In this document: positions 1 to 64,000 of the stretch, piece by piece | Layout: every line of letters starts with the position of its first letter | Position numbering within the stretch: the stretch's first letter is position 1 | Assembly (NCBI GenBank): GCA_977020255.1 | Contig: CDROCS010003392.1 | Span: 62,001 to 126,000 of the forward strand | Length of the DNA stretch: 64,000 nt | Origin: Obrimoposthia wandeli | Lineage: Eukaryota | Direction: 5' to 3' | Made by a program: the position numbers and the translations under genes | Notes under the pieces: model-generated | What the model saw: the letters and a program-made list of their open reading frames with translations, nothing else | Databases searched by the model: none | What the model was told of the DNA's origin: nothing

Positions 1-1485
1 TTTTGTTGAAGAAAGTCTCGGCGATAGATTCCGAGCACCCATATCAAGAGAAGCAAACAGCGGAAACGAAGAAGAAAGCAGCACAACTAAAAACGAGGAG
101 AGACCGTCAGAATCACCCAGAGCGAGAACCGTACAGTGCGATCACAGCACGTCAAGAGTACCCAGCAGAGGATTCGACCGACATCTGAGGAGGCCAATCG
201 AGACCGGACACCAGATTATACGGAGGAGGTAAGGAACAAGCGCGGAAATAAAGCCGATTGATTTTAAGAGTGATTTTGGAAACCGATTGATTTTAAGAGT
301 AATTTTGGAAAGCCGATTGATTTTAAGAGTGATTTTGGAAACCGATTGATTAAATAGTAATTTTGAAGCCGATTGATTTTAAGAGTGATTTTGGAAACCG
401 ATTGATTAAATAGTAATTTTGAAGCCGATTGATTTTAAGAGTGATTTTGGAAACCGATTGATTTTAAGAGTAATTTTGGAAAGCCGATTGATTTTAAGAG
501 TGATTTTGGAAACCGATTGATTAAATAGTAATTTTGAAGCCGATTGATTTTAAGAGTGATTTTGGAAACCGATTGATTAAATAGTAATTTTGAAGCCGAT
601 TGATTCTAAGAGTGATTTTGGAAACCGATTGATTAAATAGTAATTTTGAAGCCGATTGATTTTAAGAGTGATTTTGGAAACCGATTGATTAAATAGTAAT
701 TTTGAAGCCGATTGATTTTAAGAGTGATTTTGGAAACCGATTGATTAAATAGTAATTTTGAAGCCGATTGATTTTAAGAGTGATTTTGGAAACCGATTGA
801 TTAAATAGTAATTTTGAAGCCGATTGATTTTAAGAGTAATTTTGGAAAGCCGATTGATTAAATAGTAATTTTGAAGCCGATTGATTTTAAGAGTAATTTT
901 GGAAAGCCGATTGATTAAATAGTAATTTTGAAGCCGATTGATTTTAAGAGTAATTTTGGAAAGCCGATTGATTTAATAGTAATTTTGATAGCCGATTGAT
1001 TAAATAGTGATTTTGATTGATTTGAAGCCTCTATAAATTAGAGCAAGTTTGTAATCGTTAAATTACTAGAAAGACTCTATAAATTAAAGCAAGTTTTGAT
1101 TTTGTGCAGTTACCAATATACTAGAAAGACTTTATAAACCTTCAACCCTAAAATTAAAATCGATACGTGGATCATCCCCACTTGTGTACAGACTTACAGA
1201 AGTCTTAGGAATTTTATTGTAATTTTTAGAACGTACTTAGACGTGTCAATTTGTGTTAAATTAGTGTGTTTAATAATAAACGATTTCCTACAACTAGAAA
1301 GCGTTGTTATAAACCCTTCAGATTAAGACAAAACAACAAACCTTCAGATAAGAATTGAGACAGGCAAGCATAACATTAAGTAGGCCACAACCATCTTTAA
1401 GTCCTGCTTCTATAGAACTCACGTTGGGGCCCTCCACAGTCAGAGGATCTATATTAGAACACAGTTTCATATAGAAACCCCAACA
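1..1485 (+). mobile_element. 3' part of a ~2-kb LTR, truncated by the window edge; same family as 43527-45437 and 57425-59445
   Basis: Ends ...TAGAAACCCCAACA at 1485. The block 1155-1485 (TAAAATCGATACGTGG ... GACTTACAGAAGTCTTAGG ... AATAAA 1275 ... GTAGGCCACAACC ... CACGTTGGGGCCCTCC) aligns by eye with 45105-45437 and with the reverse complement of 57425-57760. A donor-like GGAG|GTAAGG at 229 precedes the tandem array. No PBS follows. Confidence 0.85.
249..1020 (+). repeat. Tandem array of 28-30 bp monomers, forming a ~57-bp dimer, inside the LTR
   Basis: GAA(A)GCCGATTGATTTTAAGAGT(G/A)ATTTTG alternates with GAAACCGATTGATTAAATAGTAATTTT. Confidence 0.95.
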
Positions 1486-43526: not shown

Positions 43527-45437
43527 TGTTAGGTTTAGGAATTGTTAAAAATTAAATAATTAATTGATTTTATAGTAAAACAAAAATCCTTGAAAGCAAG
43601 GTTAGAATTAAATAAATTTTAAAAATCGAAATTAAAATTATTAAAGTTAAAATATGATTAAATATTGAGACCTTGAAAGGTCGTGTGTAATGCGTTAAAT
43701 GTGTATAAAAATTAAAGGTCTCAAAAAAGAAAGGCCAGATAATAGATTGCCCCTAAAAAAGAAAGAATATTGAGAACACAGAAGCCAATTAAGAATAATT
43801 GAGCCCAGTGGAAAAGGAAAAATCAAAACGGGAACTTAATCCATTAGTGGAGAAATTGAAAAAGGAATATAATCCATTAGTGCCATTAGCGCCACTGAAG
43901 AAATCCCGAAGAATCCATCAGCGACATCGGCAATCCAGCGACTGCGAACGAGGACAGCCGCCATCATCTGGAGGTAATAGCACTTATACTAAGTGCAAAA
44001 TTATTAGTTTTGTAGACAGCCGTCATCGCCAGGATAGAAAAGATATAAGTGTGATTACAAATACCTGATTCCGCAAAATTTCCGAGAAAAGTTGAGAAGC
44101 AGAAATTGAGTGGAGAATAACAAATTGAGTCGGTGAGATTCATAAAAAGGAAAAAAGAAATTAATTATATACAGGGCAACCATCTACACCTAGAACGAGC
44201 AAACAGGAGACAGCAGATCGAAGGAAACGATAACTGAACTGCTACGAAATCCAAGCAGTAGCTATCCGACCACCTTGCCTACCGAGACCGGACTGCGTGA
44301 ATCAACCTGACGAAAATTACACGAGACGTCTCCGCAAAACCAGATCGAGTTCTATCGGACAATCCGCCGATCGATTCTATCTGCGCGAATCAACCGGAGC
44401 GAGCTTCTTCAACAATCTCTGCGAAGGAGGGTAAGAGTAGCGTGTGGGGAGAAGTTGATAGTATTTAGCAAGATCGAATTCTGAGTTTTACATATAAAGG
44501 AATTTTAAAAGAATTGTAAAAGAATATTGAAATATAAATTACCCCGTTGACTATTATATTAAAGAAATTTTAAAAGAGTTTTAAAAGAATATTGAAATAT
44601 AAATTACCCCGTTGAATATTATATTAAAGGAATTTTAATAGAATTGTAAAAGAATATTGAAATATAAATTACCCCGTTGAATATTATATTAAAGGAATTT
44701 TAAAAGAATTGTAAAAGAATATTGAAATATAAATTACCCTGTTGAATATTATATTAAAGGAATTTTAAAAGAATTGTAAAAGAATATTGAAATATAAAAT
44801 ACCCGTTGAATATTATATTAAAGGAATTTTAAAAGAATTGTAAAAGAATATTGAAATATAAATTACCCCGTTGAATATTATATTAAAGGAATTTTAAAGA
44901 ATATTGAACCATAAACTATCCCATTGGAATTTAATATTGATCACAGTTTTTAAAGAACATTGAAAGCTAAATTGGTTCAGTTATATTTCCTATATTTCTA
45001 GCAAACAACTGGCCCATCCTTTTAGAGCAACAGCTCTGTAAAACCTATAAACTTAATTTCCGTATTGGTTGGAGTAAAGACTCTAGCAACCAACTAACTC
45101 TATCTTAAAATCGATACGTGGTTCATCCTCACTTGTGTAGAGACTTACAGAAGTCTTAGGAATTTTACTGTAACTTTTTAGAAATACGTACGTAAACGTA
45201 TTGTTTTGTTTTAGTCTAGTGTGTTAACAATAAACGATTTCCTACATTAGAAAGCATTGTTCTAAACCCTTCAGATTAAGAGACATTGAAAAACAAACAC
45301 CTTCAGATAAGCATTGAGACAGGCAACTATAACATTAAGTAGGCCACAACCATCTTTAAGTCCTGCTTCTAAAAGAACTCACGTTGGGGCCCTCCGCATT
45401 CAAGAGGATCTATAAATTTCATATAGAAACCCCAACA
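43527..45437 (+). mobile_element. Solo LTR, 1911 bp, with 4-bp TSD TAAG
   Basis: TAAG|TGTTAGG ... CCCCAACA|TAAG. TATAAAA at 43704, donors at ~43974 and 44431, ~6.5 x 65-bp tandem array (44496-44910), AATAAA at 45229. Confidence 0.9.
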
Positions 45438-46539
45438 TAAGTAGTCACTTAATATTTTTCATTATTGTTCAAACTCTGAGAAAATAGTCGTTTCTGATCA
45501 CAAAATTGCCCTGAATCATTTTCGTCTGTGGTATGAATAAAACTACTGACTGATTATGGAAAATCAGTCACAGTTATAGTTCTGCTTTTTAGTCGTAATT
45601 GTCAATGGTAGAAACCGCGAGATTGAAATCCCGCGAAAACCGAGTGATGGTAAAGAGTGAGAGAGACTAATAGGAGAGGTAAGTGATGAAGAGAAAGTGC
45701 TGGTATAAATATCCACTAAATCCACGCACACTAACACAGTAGAGGTGACAGGATAAAAATAGTAGAAGTAGTTCTGCATACACAACACATACATGGTGAA
45801 TGGTTTTCAATATCGTGTATGTATGTGTACATGTTTATAGGTTTGTGTATCTAGTAAACATATTTAAGAGATTGCCGCGATGGCCACAGGGAAGTAGCAA
45901 TCCACTCTATATGTATCGGGAGAGATTGAAATCGGAGCAAAGCGCACACACACAGTCAGTAAATGAGAATTGATAGAGTGGGACATCAATATGATGTAGC
46001 GGCGGAAGTTTGATGTCAGGTGGCTAGTTTTGTTTCTGTCGTGATTGATCCATGCCGCTGATGGAGACGCCAAGAGGAAGGAAGAAGGTGTGGCTGCGAC
46101 AGTATAGGCGATAGTGACAGTAGTAACTGAGGGAGCTGGGCGGAAAATTTTAGGGATAAAAGTACTTCCTTATCTTTTCTCTTTTATGCATTTTTTTGCC
46201 GCCTCCCTGATGAGCTTGGCAGGGCGAAATGGGGTTTTTACGCTGTCGGAGGCTAAAATGGAATTTCTCCGTAATTGTGTGCACTTTAGATTAATTTTTT
46301 AAATGTCAATTTAAATTGACTAATTTATTAAATTCTAAACACAACACATGTAAACTGTTGCATTTATGACCTAGGAAAATATAATCTTCATACAAAACCT
46401 GACCCTCGCTTTCATCCTTAAATTTCCCGATAATATCCTTTAAACTCAAAGAGTGTACAAGATGATTAATGAGATATTTATGGGTATCAAGTAAGTTATC
46501 CAGGTAATAATTACCGATATTAATTGATTATTTAGACTT

Positions 46540-47800
46540 ACATTCTAAAAAAGAGTCAGTGTCCCGAGCAACGGTTTTGACCTCACAATTAAATTTGTTG
46601 TGATAATTCTGTAATTTAATATATTTGAGCTCAAACATTTTAAGTTTTGAAATGTATAAGACCGTTTGACCTATATAATTCGGTCGATCGAGTCAAATAC
46701 TCTGTTTGCCTAATAACACTGCTACCAAGTCATCTGCAATTGTTAAACTACGCTTGAAGTTGTTCTTGCTAGTATATATTATTAGTTTACGCTCATTATT
46801 GCGAAACCGTAGACAAATACGTTTCCGAAAGTTCTCTACAGTTTTTTCAGAGACTATTACATTTCAACTTGTAAAAGTCCCAATCAACTTTAATAATGGC
46901 CAAATTATGTTTTCTCAAATTCTTCTCAATATAGTCTTTAAACACTGAACTTTGACTAAACCTTTGCTCCCAACTTCATGTAGAATTGAAGAAGATGCCA
47001 ATGCACCACATAATTCAATTTGTCTTCATGAGTTACCAATAATTTCTTAACTTTTGAATTAGGTAGATATTGATGAACGGGTGCTACTGGAAGATCATCT
47101 AATTTATCATGCACATTGAGAGGGACTTTTAAATCAACCACAACCAAATAACCGATGTTTGTTGACATTGTATCAACAGTAGCCAAATCTGTCATAAACT
47201 TATTCAACTCTTTCTCATCATAAATCCACTTAAAGTTGGCACGAGGTAGATGTTGAGTAAGACCCCACCCATACAAATTATTAATGTCGATATACAGAGC
47301 CTCCGTGGATGGATTTTTGACAACATGATGTTTGTTGACAAAAGTAATTCCACTGCGTATTTAAGTATATGATGCAAATCATATCCTTTGAGAATTTGAA
47401 ACACGATGGGAATGCGTGGTTTTTTATGGAGTCGACGGTCAAAGTTACAAAAGTTGCATGCCGCTCCCATTTATTGCCCTGTAAGATGATCGTGATCTCT
47501 GACTAACTTAGACTGTGTACCAAACAAACAACAATATCTACAAGAATTAAAGTTAACCAAGTCTATGCCAGTCATGATAATTGCTTGATGAGCATTAAGA
47601 TCATACCACGGTTTGACAACAGTGGTTCCTAATTCCTTTAATTTTATCATGAAATTTAAAATAAATTTTGTATCGGAAAATTTATGATATAGGGTTATAT
47701 TGAGGCCTAAGAATAGTAGAATACTGCCAAAGCCAGTAGGTGAATACTCTCATTTTGGTCATGCAAAGTTAAAATTGATTCAAAATCAGCATTCCTGAAT
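46540..47800 (-). pseudogene. Maverick/Polinton-type protein-primed DNA polymerase B remnant
   Basis: RDHDHLTGQ.MGAAC..CN, IPIVF..LKGYDLH, LYIDINNLYGWGLTQ.LP...F.W and GYL..VDL..P..VHD.LDD.PVAP. Homologous to 55470-56800. Confidence 0.75.
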
Positions 47801-54310: not shown

Positions 54311-54519
54311 TTTTCTAGATTATGAGTATTTGATTGAAACGATTTTGTATAAAATATCTTCTCATACTTGTATTTTTCTATCTACTTATGTGACTTGCAG
54401 TTATAATGTAAACACTTGCAGTCTTACTATAAATAGATTTATTTTATATAGACAAAGCTGATTTAGTTCTAATATAAAAATGAATGAAGTGATTAATGAT
54501 TATGTCCCAATTAAATCTA

Positions 54520-56800
54520 TTCTAGAGAATGATACTTGTTAAATTTGTATAATACTTCAAACTATATTAAGCACCAAATCTGCCCAAATATTAAAAGTTA
54601 TGCGATCGAGGTGATGAGTCAACTTACATTGGAACATGTATCGAGTTTCAAAGCAGCTAACAAACAAAGTTGGAGACCACAATCACATGATGAGCGAGTA
54701 CCTTCGAGCAGCGCATTCAAAATGAAACTTATCAAGGAGACTGAACCGATCCTTTCCTGTGATTTTTCACAATTTGATGGGATACGATATGCACCACATA
54801 CTTAAGCATGCGTCAAGTCAATTTCCTGATCTGAAGTATTTCTATCATTCCTAAATCGACAGAGAATTTCAAGTTATAATGGCCATCCTTAAAAGGGATA
54901 TAATTACTGAGCACAGATAGCATGCCATTAAATATATCCTTATTTAAATGAATTGCATTATCATAGAATAGATTTTCCGGTTAAATTAACTGCGATATCG
55001 AGATTTGAACACATGAATAACTTGAGAATTAATGTATTCAAATATAATAAAAATATCCCAGTTAATGTAATAGAGGAAGAAAAATTTAAAAATCCCTTTG
55101 TAAATGTGATTTAAAGGAACGAAAATGAGAAGACTCCAGTCAACTTAATTTGGCCCGAGCATAATAATAAACTCCACTTTGCTGCAATTCCCAATTTAGA
55201 TCGTCTTCTAAATTTAGATAATAGAGCTTTCCCATTTAGGATAAGGTATAAGTGGTGTCATATATGTTTGCATGGATTCCCACTCGAGCTCTCTTATAAC
55301 TAACATCTGATGTCATGTACACTGAATCCTGATGACAATACGTTACATAGCATGGTTAAGGAAAAGGATGTAAAATTCAGTGATTGAGTAAAATGCATAC
55401 CCTTTCAATTCAGGATGTATACGGATTTTGAATCAATTATTGCAATGCATTGCCAGTATGAGAGTATTTACCTACTGGCTTCGATCATGACTGGCATAGA
55501 CTTGGTTAATTTTAATTCTAGTAGATATTGTTGTTTGTGTGGTATCCAGTCTAAGTTAGTCAGATATCACGATCATGTTACGGGGCGATATCTGGGAGCG
55601 GTATGCAACCTTTGTAACTTTGACCGTCGACTCTCTAAAAAACCACGCATTCCTATCGTGTTTCATAATCTCAAAATATATGATTTGCATCTTATACATA
55701 AATATGCGTTGATACATTAAGCTCATGGAAAATTTTTATACACTTCAAACGTCGGAGAAATATTTAACTGCATTCTGAATTATAGATTCTCTGTAGTTTT
55801 TGAGTGCGTCTTTAAAATATTTAACGGCTTCTTTAAATGCATGACTAATTACACAGTCAGTGTTCTTAGCTTCGACAAATGATAATGGAATTTTTCCTCA
55901 TAAATTTGCGAAACACTTTGTCGATTTACAAAACTACAACTGAAATCCCACACATAACTGAATTTGATGGTGTACTTCAAGACTATAATGAGGTAATTGT
56001 CGAAATCTCCATAGAGTATATGCTTTATCATATGAAGTTGGACATTTATATTTTAGCTGATGTATTTAAATCCTTTCCTGTAAAATCTTTAGTGAAATAT
56101 GGACTAGATCTCATACTTTTATTTAGTTTACCTGGTCTTTCATGGGAAACGACAATTAAAACGTAAGATTAATGTCGATATACTGCAAGATCCCGTGATG
56201 TATCAAATGTATGATTATGGTATTCGCATTGGAATGAATTTTGTCAGCAAACTTCACGTTGTCAAAAATCAATCCGCGGAGATTCTGTACATCGACATTA
56301 ATAATTTGTAAAGGTGGGCGCTTACTCAACCTCTAGCCCAGGCTAACTTTACGTGGTTGTTTGATGTAGAATAGTTGAATGAGTTGATGACAGATTTAGC
56401 AACTGTTGTGACAGTTTCATCAAATGTTGGCTATTTGGTTGATATCGATTTCACAATCCCTCCCAATGTGCATGATACATTGGATGATTTTCCGGTGGCA
56501 CCCGTTCATCAATTTCCACTTAATTCTTAACTTAAGAAATTATCGTTAACTCACGAAGAAAAGTTGAATAATGAGATGCATTGGATGCTTCTTCAAGTAT
56601 AATCAAGTCACTCGAATTCATCGATCTATAAGCTTTAGCGTATTTTTACAATTGCAGATAACTTGGTAGCAGTGTTATTAGGAAAGTAGATTATTTGTCT
56701 CTATCGACCGAATTATATAGGTCAAACAGTTTCAGACATTTCCAAACTCAGAATGTATGAGCTTTAATATATTAAATTAGAGAAATATCGCAGTTGATTT
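54520..56800 (+). pseudogene. Second, longer Maverick/Polinton pPolB remnant
   Basis: LHY.RI.FPV...ISRFE..N.L.INVF, YHDHVTGRYLGAVCN.CN, IPIVFHNLK.YDLH, DVFKSF, LPGLSWE and YIDINNL..WALTQPL. Confidence 0.78.
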
Positions 56801-57083
56801 AATTGTGATATCAAAATCGTTGCTGGGGACACTTACTTTTTTTTGTTTACTGACAAAATATGGTAACTTTTCGCCTGTTGGCTTTGAATATAAGCTTCAA
56901 TTATTGGCGGCTTCGCCATTTTATTTTCTTAAATGTATTATTAAACTTGTCTTGGCTTCGTATGTGAAATCTATTAGTTGTCTGGAATCATCTCTAATAT
57001 TTACTTCAATATTGTTTATGGATAAGAGAGCAACTGGAAGATACATCGGTTAAACTATACGAATACCGATAACATCTCCAATT

Positions 57084-57356: not shown

Positions 57357-57903
57357 GAAATTTCACTCCACACACATGCAGTTTTTTAAAGGACAGTGAT
57401 ATCCGCTTCAGAGAGTGGGGTATATGTTGGGGTTTCTATACGAAACTTGGTATAGAGCCTCTTGAGTGCGGAGGGCCCCAACGTGAGTTCGATTAGAAGC
57501 AGGTCTTAAAGTTGGTCGTGGCCTACTTAGTTTTATGGTTGCCTAATCTCTTGTACTATCTGAAGGTATTTGATTTGATGTCTCTTAGTCTGAAGGGTGT
57601 AAAAACAACTTGTTCTAATGTAGGAAATTGTTTATTCAAAATTCACGTAACTAACACCACAATACGTTTATGTACGTATTTCTAAAAAGTATGATAAAAT
57701 TCCTAAAGGACTTCTGTAAGTCTCTACAAGAAGTGGGGATGAACCACGTATCGATTTTACGTTCAGGTGATTAAGTTTCTTAGGTTTAGTCTTCTCACTC
57801 AGGTTGGTTAATCTATAACGCAACTCTCTTAAATTTCTTCGCTCCTACTTCTTATCTCTAGCTAATATTTCTTTGTTCCTTACTCTCTCTGTGTGTGTTT
57901 GAC

Positions 57904-58338
57904 CCGAATTGTCTACTGTAGACAAGGGATCTCCTAAAAACCTAATTGTCAAGATGACAATGAAAACTTACTCCTAATTGTCAACTACGGACAATGAACG
58001 AACCGAATTGTCAGCTAGTGGACAATGAATCTTACCGAATTGTCTACTAGGGACAATGAATATTTATCCAAATTACCAACTAGGGGCAATGAATGAACCT
58101 AATTGTCAGCTAGGGACAATGATCTTACGGGAAAAAACGTCTGGTAAGTTTCCTAATTGTCGCTGGGGACAATGAATAAATGTCCGATCCTAATTACCAA
58201 CTAGGGGCAATGATTGTGGTAAAGAGACAACGATCCTAATTACCAGCTAGGGGTAATGAATTTATGTATTATTTTAAATGTAGAATTACCAACTAGGGGT
58301 AATGAATATATCCTAATTGCCAACTAGGGGCAATGAAT
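57904..58338 (-). repeat. Array of 12 stem-loop units (6-bp stem, 5-8 nt loop) separated by non-identical spacers
   Basis: Units start at 57904, 57941, 57973, 58003, 58035, 58068, 58098, 58152, 58189, 58235, 58281 and 58312. Confidence 0.9.
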
Positions 58339-58443
58339 GAACCTAGTCGGTGGTCTTACCAGTTACTCGCTGATTCCTAAACACAGTGGGATGTCCGCTG
58401 CAGTTTCCGTATGGAGCGCTTGCGAGAGGTTTGGTATGCACGC

Positions 58444-58920
58444 TTGATTTTTTTGGACTGAAAATACTTTTTTGGACTTGGAATATTTCTTTGGACTGAA
58501 AATACTTTTTTGGATTAAGAATACTTTTTTGGATTGAAAATACTTTTTTGGATTGAAAATATTTCTTTGGACTGAAAATATTTCTTTGGACTGAAAATAC
58601 TTTTTTGGATTAAGAATACTTTTTTGGATTGAAAATATTTCTTTGGACTGAAAATATTTCTTTGGACTGAAAATACTTTTTTGGATTAAGAATATTTCTT
58701 TGGACTGAAAATATTTCTTTGGACTGAAAATATTTCTTTGGACTGAAAATACTTTTTTGGATTAAGAATATTTCTTTGGATTGAAAATATTTCTTTGGAC
58801 TGAAATTATTTCTTTGGACTTGGAATATTTCTTTGGACTGAAAATATTTCTTTGGACTGAAAATACTTTTTTGGATTAAGAATATTTCTTTGGACTGAAA
58901 ATACTTTTTTGGATTGAAAT
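58444..58920. repeat. 19-20 bp tandem array (~24 copies) in LTR B
   Basis: GGACTGAAAATATTTCTTT and GGATTAAGAATACTTTTTT variants. Confidence 0.95.
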
Positions 58921-59716
58921 CCAATTACTCGACCTGCGGTCAGGGAGTTGATTCTGAATTTGTGATTGTGGATTGTCAACTATTTGGTTCTCCTTATATG
59001 CGGTTCTTCCTGTCAGTCAACGACAGCTGAAATGAGATTAAAAGTTATTTGACTGCACAAAATGTGCTTACCTTTTCTTGATTGACGGTTTGATTGCTGG
59101 AGAATCTTCTTCCTGTCAGTCAACGGCAGCTGAAAAACTAAATTTGATTTTACTGCACGAAATGTGCTTACCTTTTTTCTTCTTGATTGACGGTTTTAAT
59201 TAACCGTTTTTCTTTTTAATTATTCTTATTTTTTGTTCGTTTTTGTTAATTAACTTTAACTTTTATATATTTTCGCATAATACACGACCTTCGTGGTCCT
59301 CCTAATTTTACCCTAAATTTCACTAATTTTACTTCTAAAACTTAAATTAATATTTTAATTCAATTTTCGACCTTGCTTTCAAGGATTTTTATTTTAGTAT
59401 TTAATCAACTAAAATATTTAATTTTCTTAATTCTCAACCTTAACATACCTCGGGGGTTCCAAAAAAGTTACGTCCCCGGAACGTATCGATTTTACTTAAA
59501 TAAGCCTTTGGCTGTTGATTTTAGGTTCATCCTACAAAATCAATCATTCAACTTCAACAAACATGCCCAAAAACAATTTTTTCAAAATCTCGGTTTTCCA
59601 GTGGGAAACATAATATATAATTTGGAGCAAGTCTCAAACCATACATTATTATTTATACACAACTAAAAATTTACACACAAAATTACAGATTAGGAAGGAA
59701 AGAAGGGAGGAAAGTT

Positions 59717-60247
59717 TCAGTTATCGTATGTTAGGTCAATTGTTATTGTCGGCTGGTTCCGACTGGTCAGGTAGCGTAGAACCTGCTCCAGGGGAAGGTC
59801 GGGAAAGGACGGACTGTCCCCGTTGTACAAATGGAGTTGCTGGCTCCGGGTCAAATGCGGGCTGTCGATGAATAGGTCGAACTGCTGCCCGTTCATGGCA
59901 TGGCTTTCAATCCAGTGCCGTCTGGCCTGGAACCACGAGTGGCAGTCTCGACTAGACCGCCATCTCTCGCGGACGCCCAGTTGTGTGTCGCGCCGGCGTG
60001 CGAGACACACGTAGCATTGGCAATGGATGCCACCAATGCAGCTGGCAGGCGATCGGGTGCCTTTGTGTCTTCCGCGGCTCTGGAGTGTCCATTTGGCGAA
60101 GGGTGTCCGGCACAGTGGACAGGTGATTTGTCCGGAGGTTCGAACCTTGGTCCACAAATAGAGGCACTCCTCGTGAAATTTGTGACGGCAGCCGACAGGG
60201 GATGCTGATACCGCCCAAATCTTCTCCATGCATACGGAGCACAACAT
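59717..60247 (-). CDS. RING-H2 protein 3 (~176 aa), putative E3 ubiquitin ligase
   Basis: CSVC-x13-C-R-H-KF-H-EE-C-LYLW...CPLC, then C-x5-C-x-C-x2-C. Acceptor TTTTCTCATGCAG directly precedes the ATG at 60247. Confidence 0.85.
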   Translation of the reverse strand: MLCSVCMEKIWAVSASPVGCRHKFHEECLYLWTKVRTSGQITCPLCRTPFAKWTLQSRGRHKGTRSPASCIGGIHCQCYVCLARRRDTQLGVRERWRSSRDCHSWFQARRHWIESHAMNGQQFDLFIDSPHLTRSQQLHLYNGDSPSFPDLPLEQVLRYLTSRNQPTITIDLTYDN

Positions 60248-60588
60248 CTGCATGAGAAAATGACTCCTTTCAATTTGGGGTTCACCGTTCTCATCGTTAA
60301 TTTAAATTTTATTTCAAAACGAATCCTTAGTTATCTAATCCTACCGAGTTTTGTTTCGATTTTAGGCATGTTTACGCATTCACACTAAACATAAAAAATT
60401 GTCTTTTTTAGAAATTCAGTATAATAATTACAATTTCAGTTAAACATCATACATAAAAATGGTAATGGTCAATTTACAGTTCACAAGATTATATAATTAT
60501 GATTACAATTATGGTAGCTAATTTATCGCGGTATGCGATACACAGGGTAGTTCATGATGTCACGTTCAAGTCAGAAAGTTACCTTCGA

Positions 60589-60893
60589 TTATTGTTGGGG
60601 ATTGGGCTGGCCTGTGCTTCGCTCCTCCACGCAGAACGAGCACCAGCAATCGCAGATGGTTTTCCAGCAGTGTACGATGGGTACCACTGCTTGGAGGCTG
60701 TCTTGGTTGTACACGTAGTGTACTGAGAAGGTCGCTCTGCACATTGGGCAGGTTGGGAAGTCGAGGGGTTGTTGCTGTTTGCGATGGGGATCCACGTCTC
60801 GAGGCATTCGACGTGGAAAAGGTGGTCGCAGTTGTTGGGCTTGGTGTAGAAGTCCACGATGCTCTCGTAGCAGATGGAACATTCTCCAGACAT
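60589..60893 (-). pseudogene. RING-H2 protein 2, with one frameshift (real or assembly error) near 60765
   Basis: CSIC...CDHLFHVECLETW is in one frame and FPTCPMCR...CWKTICDCWCSFC in the next. Adding one C to the C4 run restores an ORF colinear with RING1. Confidence 0.8.
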
Positions 60894-60953
60894 TACTGTG
60901 GGAGGGTTGATGTTGAATTTGGGCTCGATTGAGGACTGGTGGTTGTGTGATCT

Positions 60954-61253
60954 TTACACAAAAGTGGTCTGATTTTGTCGATCTGACAAACAGTAATAAC
61001 ACCAACACTCTCCGAAATTCTTCCAGCAGAATACCACCTGTACATATACATCCCTTTGGTTGGGTTCTAACATGACGAATCTTGCGAATTGTCTTCTGCA
61101 TATAGGGCAACGAGGGTATGTTGGGTGTCCGAACTGTCCATAAGTTCTGATCCATGTCGATAAACATTCCTCGTGGTGTAAATGGTTGCAGGTTTCGGGT
61201 CTTGTTCTTCGTTCGGTTAGATCTTCTAAACATATTGGGCATTCTTCGGCCAT
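60954..61253 (-). CDS. RING-H2 protein 1 (99 aa), putative E3 ubiquitin ligase
   Basis: CPIC-x13-C-N-H-LH-H-EE-C-LSTW...CPIC, then CWKNFGECWCYYC. Acceptor TATTTAG lies 1 nt before the ATG. Confidence 0.88.
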   Translation of the reverse strand: MAEECPICLEDLTERRTRPETCNHLHHEECLSTWIRTYGQFGHPTYPRCPICRRQFARFVMLEPNQRDVYVQVVFCWKNFGECWCYYCLSDRQNQTTFV

Positions 61254-61376
61254 TCTAAATACATGATGATGATTAATTTCTACATGAGTTTTATATACTT
61301 CTACTATTTGTACAATCGCTTCTAGATATTTCTACATATTTCACACACTAATTTATCTACAACCTCCTCTGACTCA

Positions 61377-64000
61377 TCATATCTTGATGGGAGGCGGAGG
61401 TAAGGGTCGCAATTCCACTTCCTCCATGATGGGTGTGTCACAGCATCGCAATTCTTCGCATTTTCGTCGTATTCCTGGGCATACTTGACTGCCTTTTACG
61501 CACACGACTGTCAATAGAACCACTGCTGTTGATACTACGGCCATTCCAATTAGGGCATTGACTGCTGTTATTCCGCTGTCTGATGTTTTATAACCATACT
61601 TCATTTTGTTGTTTGTCGGTTCGAATGATATTTCCATGGGTTTTGATCGGTTTCCATGTATTATGTCCGATTTTCTAAAAATTGGGGGATTTGGGTGTTT
61701 TGTTTCTGATGGAACAGGTATTATTATTTTGGATTGGAAATGATGTTTGGGATCTAGTGGGATCGTTCCCCTCACTCTTGTCCTCTTAATAATTGTACTT
61801 TGGTTTCTGGGATTTAGCTCTTTTTCTTTCGCTTCTGTCTTTGTTTTGATCACTGTCGGTTTCTTGGAATGTCGTTTACTTTCGTTTACTTTTGCCTTCT
61901 TTTTGACTAGGATTGGTCTTTTGGGAATGATTTTCCTGGGTTTGATACTTATACCGTATCTGCGAAATCGACGGTTCTGGTATCTTAGAGTTATGTAGAA
62001 TATTTCACCTGTTATTATCATGATTATGGTCGAGGTCTCTGTAGAATTACTGGCAATTCGATTACACAGACATTCTGTGTTAAAATGTGGTACTAACATT
62101 TGGCTTTGGATTTCGAATCTGATTACGCCATCTGGGTTGGGACACATTACTGTCACGCTGTCAGTTTCTAGCAATATGAAAAATAACCTAACGGAATTCC
62201 ATACGGCTTTACGTCGTCTACCTGTGATCATAATCCTGTCGACAATTTTCCAGATGCGCTCATCTCTAGGCAATATTAATGACTTTGTTCGGATACTTTG
62301 GATAATCCGCTTCCTCTTTGATATTGTTATCCGTAGGTATAACACTCTTTCATGATGCAATAATATTAAATTGTAAACGGGTGTATTTTGGTCGATTTTT
62401 ATTCTGACCTGTCGAATGACATACAATTTCTGATCGATATTGTCAGTTGCTGACGTCTGTAGATGAATGTCTACTACGTGATTTGTTTTTAGTAAGGGAA
62501 TTTCTATGTATATTGCCCGTATAACGTCTTGTCTCCATTTACTGATCATGATCTCATAACTAGCCTTGGTAGTGGTGATTTGTACGATCAGCATGATTCC
62601 TATGATCGTTCGATTCCTAAACTCAGGAACTTCACTGAAACAAGTCAAATTACTCATATAGTACGGTCTTTCCTCAATATGTTCATATATCGTTGGCTGG
62701 TATTCTGGTGCTGGTTCATCTAGAAATGGTGGTCTTGGTATAATTGTGTTGAATTTTTGTAAGTTCATTTGACCTGTTCGTCTTGCGAGATCATGACGTT
62801 TTTTTTTTGATCTCGACTCTATCTTTGAACAACAAAACAAGATGAGTAATATTAATATTATAAATCCAATGATCAGTGCGAGTATTGGATTAACCAATTC
62901 TAGAATACCATAACGTACTGCTGGTATTCCTTTACTCTTGATGGTTAATATTTTAAATTTGTGTGCACTTTGGTTGGACATGTCACTGAGAAGCACTATT
63001 TTAGTTTGTCCAAATATGTAGTCTTCACATGTGACAACACTAATTCCATAATGTCCATTAAGTGTTATCATTTCGGTCGCTGGGACTATACACATTCGTC
63101 CTGGACATCCTTTTACACACATGATCATCACGGCTCTACTGTGGGATGTCTTGATTATTTCTAGGGTGTTGTCTAGATTTCTCAAATGTAAATTATATTC
63201 GGATAGTGTCATCAATTCGGCTTTACTGGTTGGCATGGCTTGCAGTACCAATCCAATTACTACTCCATAAATCAATCCTTGTGCAACGGTGCACAGGGCC
63301 TTGACCGACCTTTTGCAAAGCGTTTTAATTATCAATCGTTTGAGAGATATCTGTTTCTGATTGGTTCGTTTTATTGTCTGTCGTTGTTTTGACATCTCCT
63401 CGATTCCATCTCGTCCGATAATCAACTGTACCGGTTTTCCTTGTATCATCAACTTTCCGAATCCATTTTTGGCGGACAAGCATGTTTTATGTCCTTCCAT
63501 CGTTTCAATTATCACTCTCTTACTTCCATACTCACGTGTTTTGATGACATCGCCGTCGAATATATACGTTGGTCCTTTTGTATCAGCATCTTTTTGTATT
63601 TCCTTTACAACTCGTTTACTTCGCTTGCATCCGGCGAATGTTGTTGATATTCGGTCAAGTGTGCGCTGTCGGTCAGCTTCGTAATCTATTCGAAATTGAT
63701 TCAGTATTCTGTTTTGTGGGTAAAATATCGCTTCATTTACTATGTTGTCCTCGATCCTTTCGTCTAGATACACAAGCACTTTGTTTGTTGGTCCATTTGG
63801 TCTTTTCATCTTTACAAACTGAAATCTTTTACTGTCGGTTCTCATAGATCGAAGACATTTTCGGATGATCCATACATCAATTAGTCCTAACAACACTAAT
63901 AACATCATCAGTGCCGGTGTATGGTACTTTATGGTGTAATTGTGGATTTCGTTGAACCAGGAACTATTTCCGTGGTTGGAGCCTATTTCCTGTGCTCCCG
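61377..64000 (-). CDS. env-like membrane polyprotein (>873 aa, open to the window edge)
   Basis: The frame stays open upstream of the annotated Met (GAQEIGSNHGNSSWFNEIHNYTIKYHTPAL, two N-glycan sequons). It has five hydrophobic segments and no introns, and lies upstream of the RING cassette and LTR. Confidence 0.75.
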   Translation of the reverse strand, partial: GAQEIGSNHGNSSWFNEIHNYTIKYHTPALMMLLVLLGLIDVWIIRKCLRSMRTDSKRFQFVKMKRPNGPTNKVLVYLDERIEDNIVNEAIFYPQNRILNQFRIDYEADRQRTLDRISTTFAGCKRSKRVVKEIQKDADTKGPTYIFDGDVIKTREYGSKRVIIETMEGHKTCLSAKNGFGKLMIQGKPVQLIIGRDGIEEMSKQRQTIKRTNQKQISLKRLIIKTLCKRSVKALCTVAQGLIYGVVIGLVLQAMPTSKAELMTLSEYNLHLRNLDNTLEIIKTSHSRAVMIMCVKGCPGRMCIVPATEMITLNGHYGISVVTCEDYIFGQTKIVLLSDMSNQSAHKFKILTIKSKGIPAVRYGILELVNPILALIIGFIILILLILFCCSKIESRSKKKRHDLARRTGQMNLQKFNTIIPRPPFLDEPAPEYQPTIYEHIEERPYYMSNLTCFSEVPEFRNRTIIGIMLIVQITTTKASYEIMISKWRQDVIRAIYIEIPLLKTNHVVDIHLQTSATDNIDQKLYVIRQVRIKIDQNTPVYNLILLHHERVLYLRITISKRKRIIQSIRTKSLILPRDERIWKIVDRIMITGRRRKAVWNSVRLFFILLETDSVTVMCPNPDGVIRFEIQSQMLVPHFNTECLCNRIASNSTETSTIIMIITGEIFYITLRYQNRRFRRYGISIKPRKIIPKRPILVKKKAKVNESKRHSKKPTVIKTKTEAKEKELNPRNQSTIIKRTRVRGTIPLDPKHHFQSKIIIPVPSETKHPNPPIFRKSDIIHGNRSKPMEISFEPTNNKMKYGYKTSDSGITAVNALIGMAVVSTAVVLLTVVCVKGSQVCPGIRRKCEELRCCDTPIMEEVELRPLPPPPIKI

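Follow-up and report, generated by a model that had tools for sequence, protein, structure and literature searches.

Burro (GYPSM1) elements are giant gypsy elements of planarians, which, according to the review section of Arkhipova and Yushenova (2019, PMC6431247), contain one open reading frame (ORF) of ~5,000 amino acids (aa) with a mononegavirus-like env between gag and pol, accessory ORFs, and SUMO-like, Bcl-2-like, BIR, MATH, and ankyrin motifs. An interference of Burro with apoptosis and ubiquitination was already suggested in the same section. The BIR-RING of Burro1 is reported to protect planarian stem cells (Lee et al. 2026, after PMC13465017). Here, we describe a giant Burro-like long terminal repeat (LTR) element at the end of a 64,000-nucleotide stretch of the Obrimoposthia wandeli assembly (contig CDROCS010003392.1; G000:C3392:62001-126000, hereafter the window), the rest of which lies in the 14.8 kb past the window. 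In its 3' part, the element carries three separate genes, RING1 to RING3, that each combine a RING-H2 domain with a four-cysteine motif and likely encode E3 ubiquitin ligases.

In the errantiviruses (gypsy, ZAM), env is a separate ORF after pol. Anakin elements belong to BEL/Pao, and we know of no ligases in either group. The viral RING ligases compared below are larger proteins of DNA viruses and mostly of the RING-HC type. Like the element described here, errantiviruses and Anakin-type Pao elements are LTR elements with a captured fusion protein (in Anakin a chuvirus glycoprotein, as far as the available text of PMC7642597 goes), but in contrast to errantiviruses it is located inside the polyprotein here. 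The herpes simplex virus 1 (HSV-1) protein ICP0 (PMC3174244, available part) and the baculovirus proteins IE2, PE38, and CG30 have the RING fold in common with RING1-3, and the combination of a RING with a motif resembling a SUMO-interaction motif (SIM) recurs in RING3; no sequence kinship is apparent, however. The genes and their surroundings in the window, in the order of the element, are:

61377..64000, minus strand: C-terminal 873 aa of the polyprotein (the tail), an uninterrupted ORF continuing past the window into phosphatases and integrase
60954..61253, minus strand: RING1, RING-H2 and four-Cys motif, 99 aa; Pfam zf-RING_2, E 3e-10
60589..60893, minus strand: RING2, RING-H2 and four-Cys motif, 101 aa in unbroken copies; zf-RING_2, E 4.6e-6
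59717..60253, minus strand: RING3, RING-H2, four-Cys motif, and a tail of ~85 aa; zf-RING_2, E 1e-7
57425..59445, minus strand: 3' LTR, 2.02 kb, TG..CA ends, internal 19-nt and ~30-nt tandem arrays

The cassette is linked to the element throughout the assembly. Among 24 loci picked by the solo LTR described below, 17 have unrelated flanks and seven have internal sequence upstream, and all seven of these contain RING2 and RING3. All three RING genes, intact or broken, were found in 14/14 copies, of which eight had been picked by their LTR, four by env, and two by a third LTR type. Genome-wide searches with exact patterns returned 5,603 primer-binding sites (PBS), 5,651 RING1 starts, and 5,135 RING3 motifs, each control giving 0, and RING1 is identical to that of the window in at least 150 copies. 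The cassette is thus carried on other copies. Since gag-pol and a 5' LTR exist (see below) and the RING genes are element-borne in thousands, it holds neither that the element lacks these parts upstream nor that the genes are single-copy host loci unlinked to the LTR.

The three genes are intronless, have the orientation of the element, and are 34-35% identical in the window copy (30-36% across the aligned paralogues). Pfam supports the original prediction of three intronless, same-strand paralogous RING-H2 ORFs except for their being intact, as RING2 of the window copy has an apparent frameshift near 60,765, within a short homopolymer (a variant or a sequencing error), which places its second half in another frame. 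Metagenome contigs of four of five runs contain both states at this site (the differences were uncounted), and the break is independent of single-nucleotide polymorphism haplotypes. Indel columns fall in runs of at least four in 58/159 cases, compared with a background of 10%.

Across 18 natural sequences of the three paralogues, the C3H2C3 ligands, Trp34, Pro50, Arg53, and the cysteines at positions 76, 83, 85, and 88 are invariant. Trp34, Pro50, and Arg53 have a role in E2 binding. With zinc ligands and E2-contact residues intact, RING1-3 are likely E3 ligases, judged from their sequences. One alternative is that they are decoys, which bind E2 enzymes or host RING partners and thereby block host ligases without degrading targets. 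RING1 and RING2 have only ~100 aa, leaving little room for a substrate module, and one phosphatase domain of the element likewise lacks the catalytic Cys. On the other hand, the arginine that follows the final RING cysteine is needed to activate E2~ubiquitin, and it is invariant in 18/18 sequences. Decoys appear quite improbable.

The model of RING2 consists of a RING fold, a β-hairpin, and a less certain Cys-bearing helix (predicted local distance difference test, pLDDT, 79). Among viral proteins, its fold is best matched by PE38/IE2/CG30 of baculoviruses and by herpes ICP0 (E 1.5e-4 to 1e-2). A RING profile search gave 3,508 matches, generic RINGs only, and the pairing of RING-H2 with the four-Cys motif was absent from the best 150 of them. 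A search for RING1 homologues returned no candidate of 54-174 aa. In the Atlas, the look-alikes of RING1 are mostly DNA-virus RING clusters (0.90-0.94), which is a lead on origin and no test of it. The C-terminus of RING1 reads [TS]TFV in 26/26 copies read, a class I PDZ-ligand pattern, and RING3 ends in IDLT in 18/26 (one further copy has IYLT and one is aberrant). RING3 likely starts at its second ATG (60247), directly after a CAG. A YAG lies 0-2 nt ahead of all three RING ATGs, compared with 49 of the 448 ATGs in the element (11%), and the CAG-ATG of RING3 is retained in 28/28 rows read, while the bases upstream are variable.

The ratio of nonsynonymous to synonymous changes (dN/dS) was determined against sister subfamilies, with partial matches excluded. 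It is 0.32-0.40 for RING1 (seven pairs), 0.15-0.18 for RING2 (six pairs), and 0.13-0.29 for RING3 (five pairs), with bootstrap upper bounds of 0.26-0.76. The proposed check on the RING genes thus gave 0.13-0.40, i.e., purifying selection; elsewhere, the values are 0.02-0.18 for reverse transcriptase (RT), 0.04-0.06 for integrase, and 0.04-0.10 for the phosphatases. It is hardly credible, then, that the RING genes were captured a single time and have since been copied as neutral passengers. Individual copies are frequently broken, as passengers would be, but the breaks are scattered as in pol, the ligands are invariant across three such divergent paralogues, and a dN/dS well below 1 between subfamilies largely refutes the idea. 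Synonymous divergence (dS) is 0.03-0.15 in RT, ~0.34 in RING1, and 0.8-2.2 in RING3, and the element copies are mosaics; old RING3 alleles have therefore been exchanged on a younger backbone.

The most likely role of RING1-3, which we propose with moderate confidence from their sequences, is that of ubiquitin ligases for counter-defense against host silencing or death factors. The anatomy, the linkage of cassette and element, the purifying selection, and the intactness of zinc ligands and E2-contact residues are established; beyond these, the mechanism would be as follows. Each RING gene would be read from its own processed RNA via the YAG just before its ATG, the processing being either cis-splicing from the leader or trans-splicing of a host spliced leader. 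The proteins would recruit host E2 enzymes and bring about the destruction of host proteins that silence the element or kill the cells expressing it, with the four-Cys motif and the differing tails selecting the substrates. RING3 may bind SUMO-marked proteins through IDLT, similar to ICP0 and RNF4, and RING1 may bind PDZ scaffolds through TFV. Together with IAP, Bcl-2-like, and phosphatase modules of the polyprotein, the RING proteins would dampen apoptosis and stress-kinase signaling.

Several observations weigh against counter-defense. Full-length, motif-complete rows make up only 22/28, 16/29, and 13/28 for the three RING genes (one locus was entered twice, and three RING3 alleles of 165 aa fail the length filter), and at the RING2 break site nine of 15 close copies are unbroken and six have the same break. 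In the RING2 model, the four-Cys region reaches a pLDDT of only 61-67, the nearest PDB folds are cellular RING ligases, none at E 0.001, and the viral matches rest on the RING core without implying kinship. With respect to a SUMO-targeted RING3, the RING is present, but six of 26 copies end before IDLT and the strict SIM consensus is only partly fitted: against the consensus in the available part of PMC3174244, IIDL fits, and the common TIDL misses by one position. Chance alone also readily produces motifs of four residues. All dN/dS pairs have a common reference, so that they are not independent, and selection indicates a benefit to the element, whose nature it leaves unspecified. A bolder version of the proposal is a DNA-virus-style arsenal, in which stand-alone ligases, one of them ICP0-like, SUMO-targeted, and destroying the SUMO-dependent silencing machinery of the host, would be read as an operon via splicing or trans-splicing and would have enabled ~5,600 copies (~16,000 ligase gene copies) of an early branch of a wide Burro-like clade with an exchangeable 3' counter-defense slot. 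This combination is tentative and, taken as a whole, on the unlikely side.

The complete element is 23-24 kb long; other copies have 20.4-23.9 kb and one deleted copy has 15.5 kb. At its 5' end, the PBS and a leader rich in repeats precede gag, which has a single zinc knuckle; then come a Monjiviricetes-type fusion protein (PF24664, split into six pieces in the window copy), protease, BIR, RING, a second protease, RT, RNase H, integrase, and two dual-specificity phosphatase (DSPc) domains. Natural frames of 4,335 and 4,645 aa and a third of 5,301 codons, interrupted by only one stop, demonstrate a single polyprotein from gag to tail. A Ty3/gypsy retrovirus-like element with gag-pol, a PBS, and a 5' LTR had been expected past position 64000, and these parts were found there, upstream in the element, the 5' LTR with its last 6 bases. 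With two LTRs, PBS, target duplication, a protease-RT-RNase H-integrase order, and an RT that is closest to Ty3 among solved structures, it is a Ty3/gypsy element (Metaviridae). BIR (E 2e-11) and RING (E 4e-12, both Pfam) adjoin the fusion protein. Ubiquitin-like (E 0.01) and Bcl-2-like (E 0.087) segments before env are weak and below Pfam cut-offs, and the latter has no Bcl-2 match in the PDB. A segment of ~110 aa between protease and RT, in the place of the dUTPase-like domain in Burro, has no Pfam match. The first phosphatase retains HCxxGxxRS, and the second lacks the Cys.

A weak, degenerate second BIR follows the first. The BIR region (L011:5768-7330) shows a dN/dS of 0.66-1.41 between subfamilies, with wide intervals and few synonymous changes, which suggests relaxed or diversifying selection, unlike in the rest of the polyprotein. 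Between integrase and phosphatases lie three repeats of ~85 aa (L087:5593-6582; 24-28% identical, E down to 6e-9) with a dN/dS of 0.12, i.e., under purifying selection; they look IPT/TIG-like by eye only, and neither Pfam nor the PDB returned anything for that identity.

The ORF at 61377-64000 had been called env and the order gag-pol-env-RING had been assumed. The ORF is indeed uninterrupted, but it represents the C-terminal 873 aa of a frame of 2,171 codons beginning in integrase, and env is located in frame between gag and pol. An env identity is therefore ruled out by the continuity with integrase and the true env upstream, and an errantivirus-type env after pol was not found, the frame after pol being continuous with integrase and without env match. 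The tail has four strongly hydrophobic segments, nine N-glycan sequons, and proline-rich and tyrosine motifs, and it is under purifying selection, with a dN/dS of 0.14-0.43 against sister subfamilies. It gave no Pfam match above cut-off (env included) and, in the Atlas, leads under 0.9 only (best 0.82); scoring 8,000 candidates of 480-1,528 aa yielded no homologue, and its fold prediction has a pLDDT of 28.6. A likeness by eye to the C-terminal ectodomains of the relatives below did not beat 200 shuffles. The tail is likely cut into membrane proteins and is possibly a second surface protein.

RING1-3 might instead serve the life cycle of the element itself by ubiquitinating Gag, the fusion protein, the tail, or a receptor (for budding, sorting, or superinfection exclusion). 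This would suit an element that encodes a fusion protein and whose multi-membrane tail contains proline-rich and tyrosine motifs, and derivatives of ~16 kb without pol retain gag, env, and the RING region; the RING genes are, however, broken in both sampled derivatives. Moreover, the two relatives with the same gag-env-pol core that were read in part of their 3' slot lack a RING there (2/2), and RING3 alleles far older than the backbone fit host interaction better than housekeeping. We consider a life-cycle role unlikely. The derivative (G000:C6078 and C5320; L092-L095), a relative of window 1-1485, is devoid of the second protease, RT, RNase H, integrase, phosphatases, and almost the entire tail, and retains gag, env, first protease, BIR, and all three RING genes. 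The deletion is common to both copies, and the derivative was therefore likely amplified in trans.

The likeness to Burro comprises the single gag-pol ORF of ~5,000 aa, the fusion protein in frame between gag and pol, BIR and RING, thousands of copies, and accessory ORFs; the ubiquitin- and Bcl-2-like segments are weak here. The element is smaller, however (20-24 kb versus >30 kb), gives no Pfam match for the MATH_TRAF, ankyrin, and Smc motifs of Burro1-4, and adds two phosphatase domains and the three ~85-aa repeats after integrase. As it is under 30 kb and lacks MATH, ankyrin, and Smc matches, it is filed as Burro-like and not as one of Burro1-4. The comparison is with the published description, no named Burro sequence being among the search matches. 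Three separate 3' genes with RING-H2 and four-Cys motif are not mentioned in the review section of PMC6431247. The literature covered holds no LTR element with a 3' RING cassette; the primary Burro papers, which may annotate one, lie outside that coverage. In PMC5408684, RING is absent as a whole word, Burro is absent from bioRxiv 10.64898/2025.12.11.693146, and the available parts of PMC8532177 and PMC13238120 add nothing on structure. The original prediction, which knew of nothing like this element, is thus superseded, since Burro with BIR, RING, Bcl-2-like, and ubiquitin-like cargo is published (PMC6431247, review section). The core known from Burro is not new, while the putative phosphatases and the three-gene RING-H2 cassette were not found described.

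The Burro1 example raises the alternative that the ligases mainly aid the survival of the host cell, as is reported for the Burro1 IAP, to mutual benefit and without conflict. The reported stem-cell protection by Burro1 BIR-RING (PMC13465017) and the tolerance of ~5,600 copies are in line with this, but the selection was measured along element lineages, and no fixed, host-controlled copy turned up, though no search was aimed at one. Mutual benefit as the main role is unlikely in our estimate; it can hold alongside counter-defense.

Of the 120 long polyproteins listed, 14 metagenome sequences (P0204-P0264; 49-57% identity) come closest to the element over pol. They are unnamed or mislabelled; P0259, for example, is labelled as a Flavobacteriaceae protein. 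PF24664 precedes pol in 13 of the 14 relatives scanned, most of which end in a membrane anchor, and none (0/14) has BIR, RING, or DSPc matches. In a tree of RT-RNase H (29 rows, one short row left out), the element is an early branch with these relatives in a clade of 16 (support 99/99). In the loci L096 and L097, the two relatives with DNA, an RNase T-like exonuclease gene and coiled-coil ORFs lie 3' of the polyprotein, where the element has its RING genes, so that this slot holds exchangeable accessory genes. P0204-P0264, L096, and L097 form a clade of gypsy polyproteins of 2,400-4,100 aa in which env precedes pol. The number of protease domains reaches three or more, inserts are of the ankyrin or C2H2 type, and the C-terminus is often S/T-x-V. 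Viral contigs contained no close relative (L098 and L099 left out).

The remaining features of the window are:

59446..59716, minus strand: 3' untranslated region, ~270 bases, without purine-only tract before the LTR
57421..57424, no strand: target-site bases TATA, whose partner at the 5' end is not assembled
43527..45437, plus strand: solo LTR of a sister subfamily, 4-bp TAAG duplication; its full-length members have the same three RING genes
1..1485, plus strand: 3' part of an LTR of a third subfamily, of which two sampled members are ~16-kb elements without pol

The 2-kb TG..CA LTR predicted at 57425 was recovered at 57425-59445 on the minus strand; in four other copies, both LTRs are 87-97% identical to its unique ends. 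In the window copy, the contig stops 6 bases into the 5' LTR. The LTR at 43527 is a solo LTR with a 4-bp target duplication (TAAG), as had been stated; its claimed relatedness to the LTR at 57425-59445 does not extend beyond the ends, where alone the two are alike (72% over 180 nt and 83% over 342 nt). A 4-bp target duplication is present in 9/10 other copies with both ends read (5/6 automatically, four by eye). Within four copies examined, the LTR pairs are 93-99.9% identical; with pairs up to 99.9%, some insertions are therefore recent. The copy on G000:C1032 (L013-L017), with LTRs just 93-94% identical and without target duplication, is probably either a misjoin or the product of recombination between two copies.

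In 11/11 copies in which the motif was found (14 examined), 8 nt separate the PBS from the LTR. We take it to resemble the 3' end of tRNA-Met; a pattern search for tRNA-Met genes gave 0 matches. A short inverted repeat at 59469-59485, ahead of the 3' LTR, is conserved in all subfamilies. Without a purine-only tract and with the inverted repeat before the 3' LTR, the priming of reverse transcription may be atypical. About 400 bases from the 3' LTR lies one of two decayed inverted stretches (window 54500-57000 and 46500-47800; 80-90% similar), the motifs of which, by eye, presumably resemble a Polinton-type DNA polymerase B.

One marine metagenome (a single study) contains pieces of the element. 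The assembly is from a mixed sample, with many bacterial cox1 genes and one table-5 animal cox1 on a 27-kb contig. Because it holds bacterial and a second animal's cox1, the host of the element is an inference. Several copies of a table-9 mitochondrial stretch are present in nuclear contigs (L037-L039), and in the table-9 cox1 of large contigs AAA stands for Asn and ATA for Ile at conserved sites, in the order nad1-cox1-cox3. Both features suggest a rhabditophoran flatworm as the likely host and not an echinoderm.

To our knowledge, few transposon-encoded counter-silencing proteins are known in animals. The element offers three small, easily expressed ligase candidates under selection, the substrates of which would identify the factors by which the host holds LTR elements in check in this lineage. 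It is suggested that the Burro layout characterizes a broad clade with swappable accessory genes and is not a peculiarity confined to freshwater and land planarians. A single family of this kind may account for up to about a tenth of the 1.35-Gb assembly (5,600 x 24 kb, an upper bound).

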